Virus record (IMG/VR): IMGVR_UViG_3300043394_000609
DNA length: 64,000 bases
Origin: a virus
Taxonomy: Duplodnaviria > Caudoviricetes
Direction: 5' to 3' (one strand)
The notes below the pieces were generated by a model, which was not told the DNA's origin, ran no database searches, and saw only the letters and a program-made list of their open reading frames with translations. Made by a program: the position numbers and the translations under genes. This document shows, in pieces, positions 12,162 to 22,211 of the stretch. Numbering within the stretch: the first letter of the stretch is position 1; the number at the start of each line of letters is the position of its first letter.

Positions 12162-13277
12162 ATGAGCACAATTATTAACGGAACTGAAAGAGAAAAATTA
12201 TATACCCAAATTTTGCATTTGTTGGGAATGCCAGTTAGAGGCGTTGAATTGACAGAAGAGCAAATGGATACGTTTTTAGAGCTTTCTATTAACGAATATG
12301 ATCAAATGGTCAACGATTGGTTAATTGAGTCACAGTGGTCTTCTTTAGTGGGTCTAGATATGGACACTCAATCTATAGCTAATGCATTCACAACAAGAAA
12401 CATGAATTTTGAAGATCAATTTACATATTCATATTCTAAAATTGTTGGGTTACAAGCTAATGGTCCTTGGGTTCTTAAAAAAGATTATATTGAATTAGTT
12501 TCTGCTCAACAAGTATATGAAATACCAGCTGGTCGTGAAATCAATGAATTATTATGGTTTAGCCGCGCAGAATTAAGTGACTCTATTGTCGACCCATTTT
12601 TAGGTGGGTTTGGTGGTCTAGGTGGTGTTGGATTCGGTGGTGTCGGTGGATTCGCACAAGTAGGTGCTTCTGGTTCTTACTTTATGCTACCAGCATTTGA
12701 TCTTTTAATGAGAATGCAAGATAGAAATTTAAAAAACCGTTTAATTGGTGGTGATCTAACATATAGAATTACCGCTGGACCTGAAGGTAAAAAATATGTT
12801 CACTTATACAATGTACCGGGTGGTAAATTTGACTTTGGATCCATATCACAAAACAATCAAAAAGTTTGGTATTGGTATTATGACACATTCGATAGAGATT
12901 CTTGTTTGCAAGCAAATAAAGATGTTGTTAAATTACCATCAGATGTAACGACAGATGCATTAGTTTGGTCTGATTTAAATAGACCAGCACAAAACTGGGT
13001 AAGAAAATATCTTACAACATACTGTAAAGAAACTTTGGGTAGAATATATGGTAAATTTTCTGGTGATCTTAAAGTACCAGATAGTGATGTAAAATTAGAT
13101 TACACAACATTATTAACAGAAGCAAAAGACGAAAGATTAAAACTTAATGAAGAATTAACTCAAAGATTAGAACGTCTTCGTCCTGATAAAATGTTAGAAA
13201 GAAAAGGAACTGAAGCAGAGAATTTGAACAAGGCCCTGAAATACAGAGCCATGCCAAATCCATTTAACGTTATATAA
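12162..13277 (+). CDS. Neck / head-tail adaptor protein (T4 gp13-like)
   Basis: 'LG.P...VELTEEQ' N-terminus and 'WVRKY.....KE.LGRIYGKFSG' C-terminus; preceded by the late motif. Confidence 0.75.
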   Translation: MSTIINGTEREKLYTQILHLLGMPVRGVELTEEQMDTFLELSINEYDQMVNDWLIESQWSSLVGLDMDTQSIANAFTTRNMNFEDQFTYSYSKIVGLQANGPWVLKKDYIELVSAQQVYEIPAGREINELLWFSRAELSDSIVDPFLGGFGGLGGVGFGGVGGFAQVGASGSYFMLPAFDLLMRMQDRNLKNRLIGGDLTYRITAGPEGKKYVHLYNVPGGKFDFGSISQNNQKVWYWYYDTFDRDSCLQANKDVVKLPSDVTTDALVWSDLNRPAQNWVRKYLTTYCKETLGRIYGKFSGDLKVPDSDVKLDYTTLLTEAKDERLKLNEELTQRLERLRPDKMLERKGTEAENLNKALKYRAMPNPFNVI

Positions 13278-16170
13278 TTGCTGCGTGTAAAGCATAATCA
13301 TTACCATTAGTTTCAATAATTTCTTCATCTGAATTATTTCTAACACTATCGGCTTGAAACTTTACAACTTTTCTATTGTAATCAACCCATTTTTGGTCAA
13401 CATGTTCAATGCTATTTTCAAGATACATAAAGAATGGGTCTCGTTCAACGCGATTCCAAAATAACACTTCACTATCAGAAAGTGTCATAACTTCTTCTAA
13501 ATTATCTTGACCATCTGCTTTTAATGGAAACCCATTTACTAACTCACATTGTTTTCTAGTAAACGAAACTCGGTCTTCTGGATTCTCAATTAAAATTTCA
13601 TTTCTAATTTCTGGTTTAAAAACAACCAAAAGAGGTTCAACTCTTTTATTGAAATTATTAATGTAACGAGCAACATTATAATCCCCTTTTAAATCTGGGT
13701 TATCCATAATGTCTTTCTCCGGAATCATGTAACAGTTAATCTGAATATAATTTGGCGGAACATCCTTACCGTATTTTTCCTTAAATTCTTCCTGGAATTT
13801 TTTAGTTGGCTTAGAAACCCGTTGTACGTCACCATCTGTTTTCTTAACCCCATTATTAATATAATAGATGGTTTCACCAAGACCTGCTTTATGATTGTTC
13901 TGTAGAACCAATTCCATATGTGCTTGTCTAGCCATAGATGCACCAGATTTTGTTGTTTTAGTTATGTATTTTCTATAATCTTCCGCACTTTGTTTAACTC
14001 TTGATTTATTAGCCATCTTAGCTAATGGTATTTGTTTTTCATAAATCAAGGTAAGTGTCTTATAATATAGATTCAAAAATTCAACACCATCACCATCTAA
14101 AAGATATTTTAATCCTTCATCTAAGAACTCAACAACATATTGTTGTAGCTTTTTAGACTTAATGGTATTACCGGTAAGTTTAATTTTTTCTTTACCTTTC
14201 TTAACTAATTTAATGATATAGTTTTTTCTAGACACATTAATACATGATGGTGCGGTATAGTCAATATCTAACCCCATTTCCCCACGCATAAAAATATCAT
14301 TAAATTCAGCAGTATCTGCTGATATTCCACGATACTCTTTACCTTCTTCAACTAACTCATTAAATCCTTTACCAATATAAACAGTTTCATCAATATTGTC
14401 AGGTGTTTCAAAGTTAACCCCATCCGTATCCATTACAAGTGGTTTATAACCTTTTTCAATATAAAACATAATCATCATGCGTAAACATTGTCTCCCAACA
14501 CAGGTGATTGTTTCACCTTTATTCATATCTCCCCAAGGAAATACATGTGGTGCTGATAATGAACCAAAGTACGCGTTAATAAAGATTTTAATTGGTAACT
14601 GTTTACGGTCGTACATTTCAGCTAAAACCGGATCTTTGTCTTTATATTCTGATGCTAAGTTTTTATACATAATACGAACATTACGGAAATATTTCAACAT
14701 AGATTTCTGCACCCCCATAACATCACATTCTGGAAACACATCATAAACTAATTGGATCGATGGATAAAGCGAAGAGTAGTCAAACTTAACAATGTTCTTT
14801 GAATAACCAACATTTAATAATCTAGATAATCCACCGGTAATTGCTCGCTTTTCGTCTTTTAATGGAATTGCCAAATCATGATCATAGCTCCACGCTAACA
14901 TCAGAATTTTCCATAATGACGCAGTACCCATTGTGGCAATCCTTTCATATGTTGTTGGTATTACTTTAGATAAAAGAAACGTTGATTGACTAAATGAATC
15001 ATCTACAACCATTGTTTCATACAAGTCATCGTCAAGATATTGTTCCACAATTCTTTTACCACCCCATTTTTCAAATTTACCTGGGAATTTATCCATTAAA
15101 CCATCAGTACCTGGATCACCTACTTTCTTATATCCACCTGTTTTTGGGTTAATATAATAGTCTTCATTTTCTAAATAAATTTTAGAAATCTTACCACCAT
15201 CAACATAAACACGATTAGGTTTTTCTTTTTCCAAATATGTGGTGATGTATTTCAATCCCCATGATTTAATTTCAGAATTAATTGCTTGTGCTCTTCTTAC
15301 AGCATGCGCGATGTCGATAATACTAAACCCCCATAAAACAAACTGAGTATATGGTTCAACTTCATTCGCCAATTTCAAAACGCCTTCTTTTGTTTTGATA
15401 CCTTCCGGTGTGAAAATCTGAGTTAATTCTCTAATATCCATCCCCAAAATTTGCGCGCGTCTAAAAATAAATGGTAAATCGAACGCAGCAGAGTTATAAC
15501 CACTAATTATTGTTGGTTTTAGTTCCCTGATTATTTCGAAAAATTCTTCAATACATTTCTTTTCACCATCTTCACCAAACGCACTAATCGTTCTGTTTAA
15601 ACCACGATTATCTTTAACTCCGATCAAAATTATATTACATTTATCGGCTTCTAATCCAGTGGTTTCAATATCGAAAACCATTCTATGTACACCAGAATAA
15701 TCTTCAATTCCTTTAAATAGACGTTTTTTCTTTTGAATTAGATACTGTTCGACAGGTGATAAAATTTGGAATTGACTTTTATATTTTTCATCCCATGGGT
15801 TAATTCCCCCTTTTTTGAAAAAGTTAATCAATTCGTGATAACCTTTAATGCTTTTAACCATATGGGTTAATCCAGCTTCAAGTCTTTCATTACCTTCGGT
15901 TTTAAGTTTGGTGCTTAGAATACCAAACTCCCCCATCATTTTTTTCTGCATGGTTTTACTACCACCGTAAAAATTAAAACTTGATAAATCACCTACCCAA
16001 AGAAATGGGACAAAGGTGTCTTCTTCATAATACTTCCCCTTTTCAGGGTCTTGCATTATCTTGTAGATTACATTTTTTCGATAATCATATTCGATACCGA
16101 CAATGTACTTTTCGGGGTCAGACCCGTTCAAGAAATCTTCGATGACTTCTTGTGAGATAAATTCTGCCAT
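13270..16170 (-). CDS. polB: Family B DNA polymerase with 3'-5' exonuclease
   Basis: Exonuclease motifs FDIETTG and GYNSAAFDLP; polymerase motifs FDYSSLYPS, KIFINAYFG, DTDG and KNY. Confidence 0.95.
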   Translation of the reverse strand: MAEFISQEVIEDFLNGSDPEKYIVGIEYDYRKNVIYKIMQDPEKGKYYEEDTFVPFLWVGDLSSFNFYGGSKTMQKKMMGEFGILSTKLKTEGNERLEAGLTHMVKSIKGYHELINFFKKGGINPWDEKYKSQFQILSPVEQYLIQKKKRLFKGIEDYSGVHRMVFDIETTGLEADKCNIILIGVKDNRGLNRTISAFGEDGEKKCIEEFFEIIRELKPTIISGYNSAAFDLPFIFRRAQILGMDIRELTQIFTPEGIKTKEGVLKLANEVEPYTQFVLWGFSIIDIAHAVRRAQAINSEIKSWGLKYITTYLEKEKPNRVYVDGGKISKIYLENEDYYINPKTGGYKKVGDPGTDGLMDKFPGKFEKWGGKRIVEQYLDDDLYETMVVDDSFSQSTFLLSKVIPTTYERIATMGTASLWKILMLAWSYDHDLAIPLKDEKRAITGGLSRLLNVGYSKNIVKFDYSSLYPSIQLVYDVFPECDVMGVQKSMLKYFRNVRIMYKNLASEYKDKDPVLAEMYDRKQLPIKIFINAYFGSLSAPHVFPWGDMNKGETITCVGRQCLRMMIMFYIEKGYKPLVMDTDGVNFETPDNIDETVYIGKGFNELVEEGKEYRGISADTAEFNDIFMRGEMGLDIDYTAPSCINVSRKNYIIKLVKKGKEKIKLTGNTIKSKKLQQYVVEFLDEGLKYLLDGDGVEFLNLYYKTLTLIYEKQIPLAKMANKSRVKQSAEDYRKYITKTTKSGASMARQAHMELVLQNNHKAGLGETIYYINNGVKKTDGDVQRVSKPTKKFQEEFKEKYGKDVPPNYIQINCYMIPEKDIMDNPDLKGDYNVARYINNFNKRVEPLLVVFKPEIRNEILIENPEDRVSFTRKQCELVNGFPLKADGQDNLEEVMTLSDSEVLFWNRVERDPFFMYLENSIEHVDQKWVDYNRKVVKFQADSVRNNSDEEIIETNGNDYALHAAII

Positions 16171-16198: not shown

Positions 16199-16215
16199 TT
16201 ACGGACTATCCGTAA
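16199..16215 (-). promoter_or_regulatory. Hairpin in the polB 5' leader (candidate translational operator)
   Basis: Perfect 7-bp stem TTACGGA-TAG-TCCGTAA about 30 nt upstream of the ATG. Confidence 0.4.
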
Positions 16216-16268: not shown

Positions 16269-16290
16269 AAGGGAATGTTTCCATTCCCTT
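16269..16290 (-). terminator. Intrinsic terminator
   Basis: AAGGGAATG-GAAA-CATTCCCTT followed by a T run; ends the fibre cluster. Confidence 0.8.
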
Positions 16291-16317: not shown

Positions 16318-16686
16318 TTATATTACATTAATAAATAATTTTTCTCTTATCGGTAATATTAATTTGTTTGATGGTGTTGAATTGATGTCCATAAATTGGA
16401 TAATAATTTTACCCTCATATTTACCTATTTTTTTTGTATTATCTTCATTAAAACGGTACGTTATATAATATTCATCAGTTGTTTGATTATATTTTTTAGT
16501 CCTTGTTGTTAACATACAAGTACCATTTAATATTTCAGGTTCACCCGTTTTAACGTCTAACATTTCGAATGTTATATCGGCATTACCCAATAGATCATTA
16601 AAGGATGACTTGTCGTTTTTACCGTCATCCACCATCCTCATTTTTAAAATAGGGTCCGTTGCACCTTGTCTGATGAAAAATTCCAT
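16318..16686 (-). CDS. BppU-N-like baseplate/fibre adaptor domain protein
   Basis: 'FFIRQGAT.P.L', 'Y.F...T...G.YEG' and 'LP....L.I.V' pattern typical of BppU N-terminal-like domains. Confidence 0.55.
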   Translation of the reverse strand: MEFFIRQGATDPILKMRMVDDGKNDKSSFNDLLGNADITFEMLDVKTGEPEILNGTCMLTTRTKKYNQTTDEYYITYRFNEDNTKKIGKYEGKIIIQFMDINSTPSNKLILPIREKLFINVI

Positions 16687-16928
16687 TACTTAATTGTTAA
16701 AATAAATTGGTTACCTGATTTAATCGGTGCTGTTTCACCTTCTTTCAATTCACTAGACATATAAAAGAATTGTTCTTTTACAATTTCGTGTGGAAATTTA
16801 ATTTCTTCTTTAACCGCACTCTTAATGTTTTCAATTGTTAACGGTTCGTCAACATTGAATGTCTTACGGTATCTTTTTATTTTTTCTTCGTTCTTAACGA
16901 TTAAAACTTCTAAATTAAATGATTTCAT
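16686..16928 (-). CDS. Small protein with ubiquitin-like (beta-grasp) sequence pattern, no C-terminal GG
   Basis: [24 protein letters not shown]...LKEGET aligns by eye with ubiquitin [24 protein letters not shown]...LEDGRT. Confidence 0.5.
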   Translation of the reverse strand: [80 protein letters not shown]

Positions 16929-16964: not shown

Positions 16965-19046
16965 TTAATCGTCCCACCATATGTAATCGTTTATCATTGT
17001 TTCACCATCGTAATCATCCATTGTAACAGATGTTATTGTTTCATCACTAACTAAGAAAAACTCTTTTGTTCCTTGACCTTGGAATATAACCACGAATCTA
17101 TCTTTTGCTGAATATATATCACTCCAATTATTGTATTGTGTGGTGTAAGTATTTAATAATGTTCCTGTAAAATCATATAAATTTATAGTGTAAACTCCAC
17201 CATCTGATTCGTTATAAACCATCATAAACTTATCTTTACCGACTGATATGTGATTATAATAATATTCAGGAATTGTAATTTCCGAACTAATTCCACTATT
17301 TGTTAAAACTCTACAAGCTCCACCACCTTCAGACCATAAAACCATATTACTTGGGTCTAAGAATGTAGATGAGAAATAATCATTAGGGGTGTTAGTGTTG
17401 TCATAATAAGTTGTCGATGTAAATCCAGTACTTCCACTATAAACATAATGTGCTTGGTTAGTGGTGGACGAATCAGTATAACGTAAATACAATATATCAC
17501 CAACAGTATTTGCATTGTATTGATAATTTGAATATAATATTGGCTCTAAACTATCAAGAATTGTTCCATCGACATCAATTAGATTAAAGAACATATCAAT
17601 CCCGCTGTTTGTACTGTAAAATGCTAAAACTCTATCACCCATTGAGTAAATATTGATATCTGTTACACCTGAAACTGATTCGTTAAAATTCGTAATAGTT
17701 ACACCGCTAGTTGTGATTGTTAATAAACCCAAAGTATTACCCGTTGTTTCACAAAATGTCTTAAATGTGTTGCCAAGATAACCATTTGACGATACCGCTC
17801 TATTTGTGCCATTTGTTACAGAATAAGTAGTAAACCCAGTTTGATTATTCAACATATAAACATAATCGAAGTAATCGCATACCGGACCAAAATTAACGTA
17901 ACCAACTTCATTATATAAAGAAATAACCACACTACCATCTACGTTATCATCTGGCCAATAACTTTCGTCACCAAATAAGTTAATACCATCATAATTAGAA
18001 CCCCTAACGTGAGTTGTTTCAGTTAAAGTTCCTGTTGTACCATTGTAATGGATTATTTTATAATCAACAGCGGTATTGTCCCAATGGTAATAAACCGCAC
18101 ACATTCTATCTGTTCCAAGAAAACGACCTTCTTGACTGGCATATGTGTCTCCTGTAAGTGATATTGTCTCTAATATTTCACCATCGGTGTTATAAATTTC
18201 TAAACTTGTGTGAACATCATCAACTTGGTCTTTAGTCTCAACTGCTATAAAATCAATAAATGGGGTTATTAAATGGTTAATTTGTGTACCATCCGTCCAA
18301 GTTTTGAATGGAATAACCGTACCATCAGGTTTCATAATATATGATGCACCATCACCATTATATACCCACGACCCATTTTCATATTTTCTAACAATAAAAG
18401 AACCGTCACCCATTACCGAATTATAATCCCATTCAATGTCGATATAGTGTGTTTCTGGGTTCCAAGTGTAAGTATATAAATCAACTCCGTTAAAATATTT
18501 TAAGATACCATTATTGGCATCTTCAAATGTAATCCATTTACCTTCTAAACTATTAAAGTCATAACTATTTGTTGTCCCACTATATTGACCAACGATGGCG
18601 TTTGATGCGTCTGTGAATATTACAAGATTTTCATCACTATTGTTTTGACCTGCAAAATGATAACCATATCCTGAATCGGTTAATGGATAAAGGTTGTAAT
18701 TATTCCAATAAGTTGAATCAACACCTAAATCAATAACTTCAGCGGTGAAATCGGTAAAGTTTAATGTTGCTGCACCATAGTTACTCGAAGTGGTCATTCT
18801 ATTTGAATGAACGAATAATTGTGTTTCAACTACTGGTTCGTCAACCGTTAACGTATACGTGTAATCATACTCAGCCAAATAGATGTTATAAACACCATAT
18901 GGATGTGTTGTAATGTTATTAAAAGGGATTGTTTTAGTTCCAAGGTTTACCGTGGTACCTGATGTTGTCCCCGTATATGGTACAAACGTTACTGTTGCCG
19001 TCTTACCACTTAAGTTCTCACTTGTTATTCTTGCTCCTATTGCCAT
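16965..19046 (-). CDS. Large beta-rich virion/fibre-associated protein
   Basis: 693 aa, rich in T/Y/N/G/D; preceded by the late motif; within the fibre cluster. Confidence 0.5.
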   Translation of the reverse strand: MAIGARITSENLSGKTATVTFVPYTGTTSGTTVNLGTKTIPFNNITTHPYGVYNIYLAEYDYTYTLTVDEPVVETQLFVHSNRMTTSSNYGAATLNFTDFTAEVIDLGVDSTYWNNYNLYPLTDSGYGYHFAGQNNSDENLVIFTDASNAIVGQYSGTTNSYDFNSLEGKWITFEDANNGILKYFNGVDLYTYTWNPETHYIDIEWDYNSVMGDGSFIVRKYENGSWVYNGDGASYIMKPDGTVIPFKTWTDGTQINHLITPFIDFIAVETKDQVDDVHTSLEIYNTDGEILETISLTGDTYASQEGRFLGTDRMCAVYYHWDNTAVDYKIIHYNGTTGTLTETTHVRGSNYDGINLFGDESYWPDDNVDGSVVISLYNEVGYVNFGPVCDYFDYVYMLNNQTGFTTYSVTNGTNRAVSSNGYLGNTFKTFCETTGNTLGLLTITTSGVTITNFNESVSGVTDINIYSMGDRVLAFYSTNSGIDMFFNLIDVDGTILDSLEPILYSNYQYNANTVGDILYLRYTDSSTTNQAHYVYSGSTGFTSTTYYDNTNTPNDYFSSTFLDPSNMVLWSEGGGACRVLTNSGISSEITIPEYYYNHISVGKDKFMMVYNESDGGVYTINLYDFTGTLLNTYTTQYNNWSDIYSAKDRFVVIFQGQGTKEFFLVSDETITSVTMDDYDGETMINDYIWWDD

Positions 19047-19115: not shown

Positions 19116-22100
19116 TTAAGAACCAATTTGTAATGTTATTAAACCTGAGTTAATACCAGAACCCCAACTATATGTGTATGTTCCGGGAGTTAATCCCATA
19201 CTTGATAGTGTTTTATTTGCAAATGTGGACGTGTTATTTAATTGGTTACCTGAAACATAACCAACAGGCACAACAATCGATTTGTCGGTGACAGTCCCAG
19301 GGAGTATACCAACATAATTACCTGATGTTGATGTTGGACTACCACCTATAGTACCAAAACTGGTTGGGTACGAATTGAAAGTCACATCGTACTTTGTAGT
19401 TGCCGTTGGTGATAATGAACCCATTCCCCATAACCCTAAACTTCCATTATAACCGGCAGTATTATTGGTGTTACCTTTATCTGTTAAAGATGTTGTGTTA
19501 ATTGTTCCTGAACCTGTCCAAATAACATCGGATCCCGATTCAACAATTGTCATAGTAAAAATAGATGACGGTGTTGGTGTCGGTGTGGCAGTACTAGTAG
19601 GCGTAGCTGTAGGTGTTGCCGTTGGTTGGGCAAATATCGCTTGTAACGTTGCTGTGCTACCTGTAACATATACTACCGTGAAAGATGTCGCTGCCGCAGG
19701 TAAATTAATACCGGTTCCTGACCAATATAAGAAATTACCACTACTATCATCTACACTAATTGTGTATTGTTGATTTTTAGTTACCCCATATGTGGTATTT
19801 GTTGTAAACGTCTCACCATCAAAAACAATATATGGAGTTCCAGACGGTACTAAAATATCTAACACCGCACCTTCAGGTATTGGGGTCGGAGTTGGGGTAA
19901 TTGTTGTCGTTGGTGTAGGAGTTGGTGTAACGCAACTAATATTTACGGACTTTGCAATTATATTACTCGGATTATTCAAATCTCTTACGGCTGCCCAATA
20001 CGTTCCGTCTGCATCTGTTTGAGTACCAACATTATTCCAAGAATTTGCAACGGTATACCATAGCCCCGCATTTAATGCCTCGTTTTCACTTCCAAATACA
20101 TTTGCGGTATACTCCCATTGACCGCTTCCACCTGAGAAGTTGGTTATATTAGTACCTTGTGGGCCACATTCTGCTGTAAATGTAAAATCTAATGGTGACT
20201 GTGTTGATGTTGGGGTAATTGTTGGTGTATATGTTGGCGTGATCGTTGGTGTTGGCGTTTGGGTAGGACAAATCCAAGTACTTACTGAATTGTTGTAATT
20301 CTGTGAAACATCTGAAGATGAAATTGCTCCGTCCCATATTTCTAATCTGCCGAATTTTAATGCTGAATATGTACCATCACCCAAATTGGTACTATCTTCA
20401 GCGCCTATTGCATAATATAAACCAAGGTCGTGGTTATACGGTGTGTCTCTTGTTACATTTACAGAACCAGCACTTTGACCATTTACATATGCGGTTAAAG
20501 TTGTTCCACTCTGTATAAAACCAATGTAATACCAATTATTAAGTGGTGTTGATATTGATGATGTTATAGTATCACCATAAGGCCAAACACTAAATCTCAA
20601 CGACCCACTAACCATTTCAATTTGTGTGTCGTGCCAACTTGTGTTCAAATCGTTAACACCTTGTTCACTTAATATTACACCATTATCTGTTAAATAAACC
20701 CAAAGGAATACAGATGTGTCCGCAGAATCATAAAATGAATCGATTGAACTATTTGTTATGATGTATTGGTTAATACCATTTAATGTTATATACGATGTAC
20801 ACCCATCATTTTGATATGACGGTCCACCAACTATATTTCCGGTTGTACCAGATAAAAGATCCTGAATTGTTGTACCCGTTCCGCTATATTGACTTGAATT
20901 ATTTACATTCAAATCAACAATTTTGTTATATGGTATCATTGTTGGAGTCGGAGTGGGTGTTGGGGTACTTGTAGATGTAGGTGTTGGGGTTGGTGTTTCC
21001 GTTGGGGTTAGTGTTGGTGTTTCAGTTGGCGTTGGTGTTGGTGTTACCTCATTAATAGTTGTATTATATATGTATTCAAAACCGATAGGAATTGAATAAT
21101 TGATATAATTCAGTACTTTAACAACACTAGGTCCCATAAATCCGGCTAATGATATTGCTGGGTATATATCTACCTCACTATATGCGATACCACCACTACC
21201 ACTTAATGGGTTAGCACCAATATTATTCCACTCACCATTATTCACTCTGTAATAGAATTGGGTTCCACAATCAATTAAAACGTCAATTACATCCCCTACA
21301 TTACCAAAAGTTGGGTAACCATCAGATATCATTTGCCCACCATAATAAAGTTCACCTAAATTGGTAAATCCAATACTATTTTGGTCACTTCCTAATGCAT
21401 TTTCAAAATCTGTGTCAATATTACCAAACCCAATCAAATAATTCGGGTCGGAAGGTTCCAAATCAGTATCAATAATTAAACTAAACATTAGTTTTTCCCC
21501 TGACGTGATTAACCTCTTGCCAAATCCTGTATAAACCCCGGGAGCGTACCAATTGGATATCGTCCCTTGGTCAATAACCCCTTCATAACTCTCAAAATAA
21601 TCGGGGTATATGAATAATAATTGACTCTTATTTACTGATGACCACCAAGACTGATTGTTGTTTTCAGGTCTCAGTATCGAATATGTTAAATCATTATTTG
21701 GTATTAACGTATAACTTAAATCTGTATTTGGTATTAATGTATAGTTAACGTCATTAATTGGTATTTCAATTGGGTTTAAATCGTTGTCAGGTAATAACAT
21801 GTAATTCAACCCCCCATCAGGTACCAATTTGAATAACAGATCATTTTCAGGAATTAAGTCATATGTTAAATCATTTAATGGAATTAAAGTATATGTTAAA
21901 TCATTATTTGGAATTAAAATATCTAATAAATCATTATTTGGTATTATAACATAAATTAAATCATTTTCAGGTATAGATGTTACTTCAGTTGGTGTTAACG
22001 TAGGTGTAGGCGTTGGCGTTACAGTTTCAGTTAACGTAGGTGTTAATGTAAATGTTAGTGTTGGTGTTACGGTAGGCGTTACAGTTTGAGTTAATGTTGG

Positions 22101-22211
22101 TGTCGATGTTACTGTTACAGTAGGCGTCAATGTTGGTATTCCGCTTAACTTTAATTTGTAAATTTTACCAATTGGCCTAAATTTATTTGAAAATGAATTT
22201 ATAAATCCCAT
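19116..22211 (-). CDS. Multidomain adhesion/fibre protein: Pro-Thr linkers, IPxND repeats, SPRY-like and LamG-like domains
   Basis: Five TP-rich linkers; 'GDVIDV..D....YYRVN' (SPRY-like); 'NNWYYIG.......AYVNG' (LamG/ConA-like). Confidence 0.65.
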   Translation of the reverse strand: MGFINSFSNKFRPIGKIYKLKLSGIPTLTPTVTVTSTPTLTQTVTPTVTPTLTFTLTPTLTETVTPTPTPTLTPTEVTSIPENDLIYVIIPNNDLLDILIPNNDLTYTLIPLNDLTYDLIPENDLLFKLVPDGGLNYMLLPDNDLNPIEIPINDVNYTLIPNTDLSYTLIPNNDLTYSILRPENNNQSWWSSVNKSQLLFIYPDYFESYEGVIDQGTISNWYAPGVYTGFGKRLITSGEKLMFSLIIDTDLEPSDPNYLIGFGNIDTDFENALGSDQNSIGFTNLGELYYGGQMISDGYPTFGNVGDVIDVLIDCGTQFYYRVNNGEWNNIGANPLSGSGGIAYSEVDIYPAISLAGFMGPSVVKVLNYINYSIPIGFEYIYNTTINEVTPTPTPTETPTLTPTETPTPTPTSTSTPTPTPTPTMIPYNKIVDLNVNNSSQYSGTGTTIQDLLSGTTGNIVGGPSYQNDGCTSYITLNGINQYIITNSSIDSFYDSADTSVFLWVYLTDNGVILSEQGVNDLNTSWHDTQIEMVSGSLRFSVWPYGDTITSSISTPLNNWYYIGFIQSGTTLTAYVNGQSAGSVNVTRDTPYNHDLGLYYAIGAEDSTNLGDGTYSALKFGRLEIWDGAISSSDVSQNYNNSVSTWICPTQTPTPTITPTYTPTITPTSTQSPLDFTFTAECGPQGTNITNFSGGSGQWEYTANVFGSENEALNAGLWYTVANSWNNVGTQTDADGTYWAAVRDLNNPSNIIAKSVNISCVTPTPTPTTTITPTPTPIPEGAVLDILVPSGTPYIVFDGETFTTNTTYGVTKNQQYTISVDDSSGNFLYWSGTGINLPAAATSFTVVYVTGSTATLQAIFAQPTATPTATPTSTATPTPTPSSIFTMTIVESGSDVIWTGSGTINTTSLTDKGNTNNTAGYNGSLGLWGMGSLSPTATTKYDVTFNSYPTSFGTIGGSPTSTSGNYVGILPGTVTDKSIVVPVGYVSGNQLNNTSTFANKTLSSMGLTPGTYTYSWGSGINSGLITLQIGS
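21675..21974 (-). repeat. Ten tandem 30-bp (10-aa) coding repeats IPxNDLxYxL
   Basis: IPENDLIYVI / IPNNDLLDIL / IPNNDLTYTL / IPLNDLTYDL ... IPNNDLTYSI. Confidence 0.9.

Follow-up and report, generated by a model that had tools for sequence, protein, structure and literature searches.

Gene content of the locus

In this study, we analyzed a stretch of viral DNA of 64,000 nucleotides (hereafter the window) and examined a small gene in it, Ubl80, together with its neighbours and its relatives in other phages. The window encodes a tail sheath, a tail tube and a baseplate hub elsewhere, so the phage is contractile-tailed, with structural and replication genes interleaved. Its family-B DNA polymerase (PolB) shares only 24-27% identity with the enzymes of Salinibacter and Nostoc phages, and a search of 50,697 phage records gave no match for the region, for Ubl80 or for the 693-aa protein encoded next to it; thus, no cultured relative could be recognized. 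The source is an uncultured jumbo, myovirus-like phage. The features of the locus are listed below.

13270-16170: family-B DNA polymerase gene, located after the terminator and recognized by Pfam- and PHROG-type matches
16269..16290, minus strand: intrinsic-terminator-like hairpin with a 9-bp stem and a T run, 28 nt past the 122-aa ORF
16318..16686, minus strand: 122-aa ORF, which is the final gene in the transcription unit and whose start overlaps the Ubl80 stop (TAATG)
16686..16928, minus strand: Ubl80 (P0001), an 80-aa stand-alone protein of predicted beta-grasp fold, with an ATG start
16965-19046, minus strand: ORF of the whole 693-aa protein
16965..18849, minus strand: variable, propeller-rich part of the 693-aa protein (residues ~66-693), as judged from AlphaFold2 (AF2), Foldseek, VIA and the mosaic borders
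18850..19046, minus strand: conserved N-terminal anchor of the 693-aa protein (~65 aa), as judged from the identity between loci L002 and L003 and from alignment columns
19116..22211, minus strand: 1031-aa virion protein of the same operon, also mosaic (PF13385, 2.8e-9; PHROG 8510, 'virion structural protein')

A preliminary description of this DNA had reported an 80-aa ORF whose stop overlaps the start of the next gene, and ORF calling and translation confirmed both on the minus strand. Ubl80 lies downstream of the 693-aa ORF, from which it is separated by a gap of 36 nt. The gene for the 1031-aa LamG-containing protein precedes the 693-aa gene on the same strand, as do ORFs of 345 and 496 aa. 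Together the genes make up a late, structural operon, which the terminator-like hairpin after the 122-aa gene closes ahead of the polB leader. Between this terminator and the start of polB, the leader holds a perfect 7-bp hairpin (TTACGGA/TCCGTAA) at 16199-16215. We also observed that the PolB gene alone is inverted in six contigs (L007, L013, L014, L016, L017 and L019; for example L013:10602-13502). The flanking 122-aa and 371-aa genes keep their order and orientation in these contigs, which points to a single-gene inversion of an essential replication gene.

The neighbouring genes turned out to differ from what had been proposed. First, the gene upstream of Ubl80 had been described as fibre-like, but its product does not look like a plain tail fibre and appears to combine a conserved anchor with large beta-propellers. 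Alignment columns 1-66 of the 693-aa protein were nearly invariant, and the remainder was variable. Its AF2 model was all-beta with a moderate mean pLDDT (64.7), reaching 80-90 over residues 230-510, and a Foldseek search with this model returned only tandem beta-propeller proteins (E down to 1.6e-11). When residues 170-552 were compared by VIA, 8- and 9-bladed propellers were matched (Z ~14), with the blade number uncertain because the rmsd values were high. Receptor-binding tail proteins are usually built from a conserved anchor and a variable distal module, and the 693-aa protein can thus be regarded as a candidate receptor-binding tail protein. Second, the 122-aa ORF had been taken for a BppU-like adaptor, a proposal for which sequence searches found no corresponding Pfam, PHROG or PDB match; no Pfam match appeared at E up to 5 in 10 homologues, and these searches gave no other significant match either.

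The 1031-aa protein contains (TP)n linkers, 10-residue repeats and a LamG/ConA-like domain. Approximately eleven tandem repeats of the form I-P-x-N-D-L-x-Y-x-L, with a period of 30 nt, occupy positions 21686-21968 (residues ~80-180). They are flanked by long (TP)n linkers, and more TP linkers are found between the LamG domain and the other domains. The repeats self-align in many registers in related loci, so their copy number probably varies. In the 693-aa protein, residues 610-646 weakly matched the T9SS type A sorting domain (TIGR04183, E 0.0054, below the cut-off); this match and the TP linkers are a faint hint of a Bacteroidota host, and not evidence of one.

Analysis of the distribution of Ubl80 revealed approximately 40 relatives, every one on uncultured phage contigs (up to 322 kb), which spanned 36-99% identity and 80-82 aa in length. 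IMG/VR provided 29 loci, on contigs up to 322 kb. In a large protein collection, 12 clusters (at 90% identity) matched Ubl80 at 78-100%, each of exactly 80 aa, and a filter-free search of 1.84 billion representatives added further relatives down to ~38% identity (80-84 aa). Both Ubl80 and the 693-aa gene were single-copy in each genome. No relative of Ubl80 was found among 185,579 prokaryote species genomes (GTDB, one genome per species), which therefore offered no clue to the host. Searches of PHROGs, PADLOC and NCBIfam returned nothing for Ubl80. In the ESM Atlas it fell into its own phage cluster, and the other leads were weak, namely Rad60-SLD and ubiquitin clusters (0.83-0.84). Relatives of the sequence P0015 were not found in viral contigs.

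A second, weak match to the Ubl80 profile was observed in three related phage records (G001:261558-261716 and the equivalent sites in G003 and G004; L031-L033), ~11.6 kb from the real gene. It scored 14 bits (E 0.005-0.012), contained one internal stop and is probably a chance match. With regard to the gene itself, dN/dS was 0.03-0.14 in comparisons inside one cassette type (the types are described below), and between the window and locus L001 dN was 0.005 and dS 0.177. Ubl80 is a genuine, strongly constrained gene.

Predicted fold and C-terminus of Ubl80

The AF2 model of Ubl80, which was based on a 20-sequence alignment, reached a pLDDT of 88.9 and a pTM of 0.75. Its topology is b1-b2-a1-b3-b4-b5, with strands at residues 2-12, 15-26, 49-56, 59-61 and 73-79 and a helix at residues 32-43. 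Such a mixed sheet of four to five strands that grasps a single helix is what defines the beta-grasp fold. When the model was searched against the PDB with Foldseek, the best 50 rows were all ubiquitin-type chains (ubiquitin, NEDD8 and engineered variants), with a probability of 1.0, E-values of 1.6e-3 and worse, TM scores of 0.5-0.6 and an rmsd of ~4 A. In the Foldseek-independent VIA comparison, nearly all of the best 50 matches were recognizable beta-grasp or ubiquitin-like (Ubl) domains. The F0 domain of kindlin was the best of them (Z 8.9), DWNN reached 7.4, and further neighbours included superantigen C-domains, Fubi, MoaD, UBX, FERM F1, PB1 and TtuB. The beta-grasp fold suggested in the preliminary description was thus upheld by AF2, Foldseek and VIA, and the family alignment and the low dN/dS within types add to the basis of the annotation. 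What the model solidly predicts is a generic beta-grasp of the Ubl type whose first hairpin is long, and not ubiquitin specifically.

The best structural match of all was a protein of 92 aa from an uncultured Caudovirales phage (BFVD A0A6J5RHD6), with a TM score of 0.85 and an rmsd of 1.7 over 84 columns at a sequence identity of only 13%. As this protein is the closest in shape to Ubl80, a wider phage family with exactly this shape may exist.

The relationship to ubiquitin in sequence is less clear than the fold. The preliminary description had aligned Ubl80 with ubiquitin by eye, and a phmmer search of PDB sequences recovered the same blocks and ranked ubiquitin first; however, the similarity to mono-ubiquitin was not significant (E only 0.2-0.8), and poly-ubiquitin reached lower E-values because its scores sum over the repeats. 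The two proteins share ~30% identity over 45 residues, which span strand 2, helix 1 and strands 3-4. When the family profile of Ubl80 was searched against the PDB, the ubiquitin match was lost. The Pfam ubiquitin family (PF00240) did not match Ubl80 itself and was touched by 5 of 20 relatives (best E 0.0077), and an hhalign comparison of the Ubl80 family with a poly-Ubl repeat alignment gave a probability of 34%. Homology to the ubiquitin family is possible but unproven. Since ubiquitin was lost from the profile search, we claim only the fold, and not membership of the ubiquitin family. What Ubl80 shares with ubiquitin and the eukaryotic Ubl domains is the fold and the register of secondary structure; it differs from ubiquitin in its long first hairpin, in a TM score of only 0.5-0.6 and in having no LRGG tail.

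It had also been noticed that the ORF stops ahead of the RGG tail, and this was found to hold for the family as a whole. All members end in Lys right after strand 5 (typically TIK, and also KIK, LVK, IIK and TFK), and a C-terminal Gly occurs in none of them; Ubl80 itself stops at the equivalent of ubiquitin residues 72-74. Ubl80 does not have the flexible tail, ending in Gly or Gly-Gly, by which conjugatable and sulfur-carrier Ubls are recognized. Furthermore, a search of four related phage records, one of which is 310 kb long and 93% complete, detected neither a ThiF-type E1 (PF00899) nor a Prok-JAB (PF14464), and the positive controls worked. Because Ubl80 lacks both a C-terminal Gly and a tail, and neither an E1 nor a JAB was found for the phage among these records, we infer that it is neither activated nor conjugated. 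We also considered conjugation after processing and ruled it out, with no Gly near the end, no E1 and no JAB.

The variable part of the 693-aa protein and Ubl80 form one exchangeable cassette

The 693-aa gene was followed by Ubl80 in 24 of the 29 IMG/VR loci, and the remaining five contigs end just upstream of Ubl80. When the proteins of the window were compared with all loci by tblastn, the order 693-aa gene, Ubl80, 122-aa gene, PolB was observed nearly everywhere. PolB and the 122-aa protein were ~75% identical to those of the window in each locus. The 693-aa protein and Ubl80 showed identities of 84% and 98%, respectively, in L001 and L002, and of ~47% and 55% elsewhere. Pairwise identity matrices for 11 genomes revealed a strong correlation between Ubl80 and the 693-aa protein (r = 0.90), and none between Ubl80 and either the 122-aa protein (r = -0.04) or PolB (r = -0.05). 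The latter two were correlated with each other (r = 0.57), and the 122-aa gene tracks the phage backbone, represented by PolB, rather than the cassette. Three cassette types (A, B and C) could be distinguished, and the two genes agreed in type in all 22 classifiable loci.

The borders of the exchanged segment were visible at the DNA level. Between the window and L001, a block of 88% identity begins at 19116 and ends at 16685, so that it takes in precisely the two genes, and identity is 73% beyond it; in the comparison of the window with L002, the Ubl80 stop marks a drop from 0.96 to 0.74. The backbones of L002 and L003 are nearly identical (PolB 96%, 122-aa gene 96%), but their cassettes differ. 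Their DNA is 92-98% identical in the first ~200 nt of the 693-aa gene, then ~55-60%, stays at ~0.7 through Ubl80 and returns to 0.92-0.97 from the Ubl80 stop or the first codons of the 122-aa gene. Thus, one recombination border lies within the 693-aa gene, ~200 nt from its start, and the other coincides exactly with the stop codon of Ubl80. The N-terminal anchor of the 693-aa protein is part of the phage backbone and lies outside the cassette. At synonymous sites, the divergence of the window from L001 was 0.18 in Ubl80 and 0.42 in the 693-aa gene, as against 1.59 in the 122-aa gene. Ubl80 and the variable part of the 693-aa protein constitute a single exchangeable two-gene cassette.

The pair also stays together where its surroundings change. 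In L001, L011 and L039, Ubl80 is separated from the 122-aa gene by one or two extra structural genes, and an insertion between the 693-aa gene and Ubl80 was found at none of the loci compared. In the distant locus L040, on a 322-kb contig, the pair is intact at 33% and 36% identity, the 122-aa gene and PolB are absent, and the gene downstream of the pair is unrelated and on the other strand. The junction of Ubl80 with the 122-aa gene is in itself an insertion hot-spot (L001:10318-10932, L011:1375-2100 and L039:8333-12203), and the inserts resemble the 345-aa and 1031-aa structural proteins of the Ubl80 operon.

Within type A, Ubl80 was 97-99% identical, compared with 84-87% for the 693-aa protein. 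Between types, the C-terminal half of Ubl80 was more similar than its N-terminal half (0.64-0.81 and 0.48-0.68, respectively). The 693-aa proteins of all types carry a conserved acidic-aromatic C-terminal tail, N-D-[YWF]-[IVF]-[YW]. A length-unrestricted search of the 1.84 billion representatives revealed no fusion of a propeller with a Ubl, and the long matches in it were only repeat proteins with repeat-summed scores (poly-Ubl, MucBP-like and Listeria-Bacteroides repeats). This search also brought up two chimeric relatives: in P0019 (73 aa), the first ~42 residues match the start of the 122-aa protein and the remainder the C-terminal half of Ubl80, whereas in P0021 (84 aa) this half is preceded by an unrelated N-terminus. 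The junction is at F-E-[IM]-[IV]-K-E in each, and these sequences could be real recombinants or chimeras of metagenome assembly.

The linkage of the two genes might have another cause. Ubl80 could have a function unrelated to the 693-aa protein, as a regulator, a host-takeover factor or an anti-defence factor, and be linked to it only since the N-terminal anchor and the 122-aa gene are the nearest conserved sequences that recombination can use. The cassette borders do coincide with these conserved flanks, and independent exchanges are few (three clear types and about three outliers), which is in line with such a passive association; the linkage could partly reflect where flanking homology permits crossovers, and not function. 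However, the pair is kept in L040 despite a wholly different downstream flank, and in L001, L011 and L039 despite the genes inserted downstream. Moreover, the two genes diverge by parallel degrees within types as well as between them, not a single one of the 22 loci is mismatched in cassette type, and Ubl80 is under strong constraint. We therefore consider it unlikely that Ubl80 is a mere passenger.

Proposed role of Ubl80 and comparison with known systems

Because a co-exchange pattern of this kind is the signature of a host-range module and its cognate helper, we read Ubl80 as a partner of the 693-aa protein: it is probably the cognate, non-covalent assembly or accessory partner of the variable propeller part. 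The second option of the preliminary description, in which Ubl80 serves the neighbouring tail protein as a beta-grasp chaperone or is one of its structural subunits, is supported by the co-inheritance and the co-exchange with the 693-aa variable part. According to this model, the two genes would be a host-range cassette that moves between phage backbones as one recombining unit. Ubl80 would bind the propeller protein through an exposed face of its sheet and help it to fold or oligomerize, or to attach in late tail assembly; alternatively, it might be retained as a small accessory subunit. A chaperone and a retained subunit appear about equally likely to us. It may be speculated that the acidic-aromatic tail of the 693-aa protein serves as a strand-addition ligand of Ubl80. 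Ubl80 itself is unlikely to be a receptor-contacting surface or adhesin, since it is more conserved than its 693-aa partner. We know of no fibre chaperone with a beta-grasp fold.

On the other hand, Ubl80 might be directed against host defence. As a non-conjugatable Ubl, it could act as a decoy that binds the E1/E2 enzymes (or the DUB) of host Bil or CBASS systems, or it could mask a tail protein, so that Ubl conjugation to tail proteins is blocked during assembly. The preliminary description was right about the background of this idea: in Bil, a two-domain Ubl with a terminal Gly becomes conjugated to the central tail fibre, a tail-tip protein, the C-terminal Gly is obligatory, and the mutation G163L abolishes defence (doi 10.1101/2023.09.04.556158). 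Ubl80 has a ubiquitin-like fold and a weakly ubiquitin-like sequence, its gene shares an operon with those of tail proteins, and the four related phage records hold no E1 or JAB of the phage's own, all of which would suit a decoy. However, it has no tail with which to occupy the E1 adenylation site, and it is a single domain of 80 aa whereas BilA is a two-domain, Gly-terminated Ubl. It was matched by none of the PADLOC defence models and has no relatives in the 185,579 prokaryote species genomes. Besides, it co-varies with the type of the receptor-binding protein, and not with the phage backbone or anything related to the host. Our analysis lends the decoy no positive support, and such a decoy or shield appears very unlikely to us. 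The shielding variant, in which Ubl80 sits on the phage's own tail protein and hinders its modification, would be a special case of the pairing and overlaps with the partner reading that we prefer. In its most specific form, Ubl80 would be a ubiquitin mimic on its own receptor-binding protein that pre-empts or shields it from Bil-like conjugation or titrates host E1/E2, and we regard this as highly improbable.

Finally, a role as a covalent modifier of a virion protein, or as a sulfur carrier of the ThiS, MoaD or lambda gpI type, is suggested by the fold only (MoaD and TtuB are among the structural neighbours) and appears largely refuted and scarcely credible, given the C-terminal Lys (typically in TIK) that directly ends strand 5 with no Gly, the lack of a ThiF-type E1 or Prok-JAB in the four related phage records (one of 310 kb and 93% complete) and the lack of a Pfam match to the ThiS, MoaD or lambda tail-I families.

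Host-range cassettes that pair a receptor-binding protein with a dedicated helper play a central part in the host switching of phages and in the engineering of their tropism, and to our knowledge every known helper belongs to one of a few families, such as Tfa and gp38. If our reading is true, the combination of a ubiquitin-fold helper with a receptor-binding protein built of beta-propellers would represent a novel solution, and Ubl80 would be a second, independent Ubl recruited to tail assembly after lambda gpI, without conjugation chemistry. Although the jumbo phages in question are uncultured, the 693-aa protein and Ubl80 form a simple two-gene unit that is amenable to heterologous expression. 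A more general implication is that a Ubl beside tail genes should not by default be read as tied to Ubl-based defence. If the mimic reading were true instead, Ubl80 would be the first phage counter-defence built from a Ubl against bacterial ubiquitin-like immunity.

Known systems invite comparison. BilA shares with Ubl80 the ubiquitin fold and a functional tie to the phage protein of the tail tip or host recognition, a tie that for Ubl80 is proposed from the cassette. BilA is bacterial, has two Ubl domains and an obligatory Gly, and works with an E1, an E2 and a DUB, whereas Ubl80 is encoded by the phage, has one domain and no Gly, and has no such enzymes present with it.

Lambda gpI (TAPI) is a precedent for a beta-grasp Ubl in a tail-assembly setting. 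Its Ubl domain is encoded in the tail-assembly cluster beside the host-specificity protein, and TAPI is thought to act in assembly and to be absent from the mature tail (PMC1779556). In TAPI, a conserved Gly ends the Ubl domain and is followed by a Gly-rich linker and a C-terminal domain, and the protein is paired with the JAB/NlpC peptidase gpK (PMC1779556). By comparison, Ubl80 is a single domain that has no Gly, no JAB found in the related phage records and no Pfam match, and it therefore does not group with TAPI. TAPI occurs in siphoviruses, and Ubl80 in a jumbo myovirus-like phage.

The pairs of host-range protein and helper that are exchanged together in other phages are gp37/gp38 of T4, Stf/Tfa of lambda, S/U of Mu and H/G of P2. 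Ubl80 has no sequence relation to the Tfa and gp38 families and is predicted to be a beta-grasp domain, and the 693-aa protein is rich in predicted beta-propellers, unlike the trimeric fibres that are the classical partners. What the 693-aa/Ubl80 pair has in common with these fibre/chaperone cassettes is their organization: a small gene directly follows the host-range gene, the large protein has a conserved N-terminal anchor, and its distal, variable part is exchanged together with the small gene among phages that are otherwise similar.
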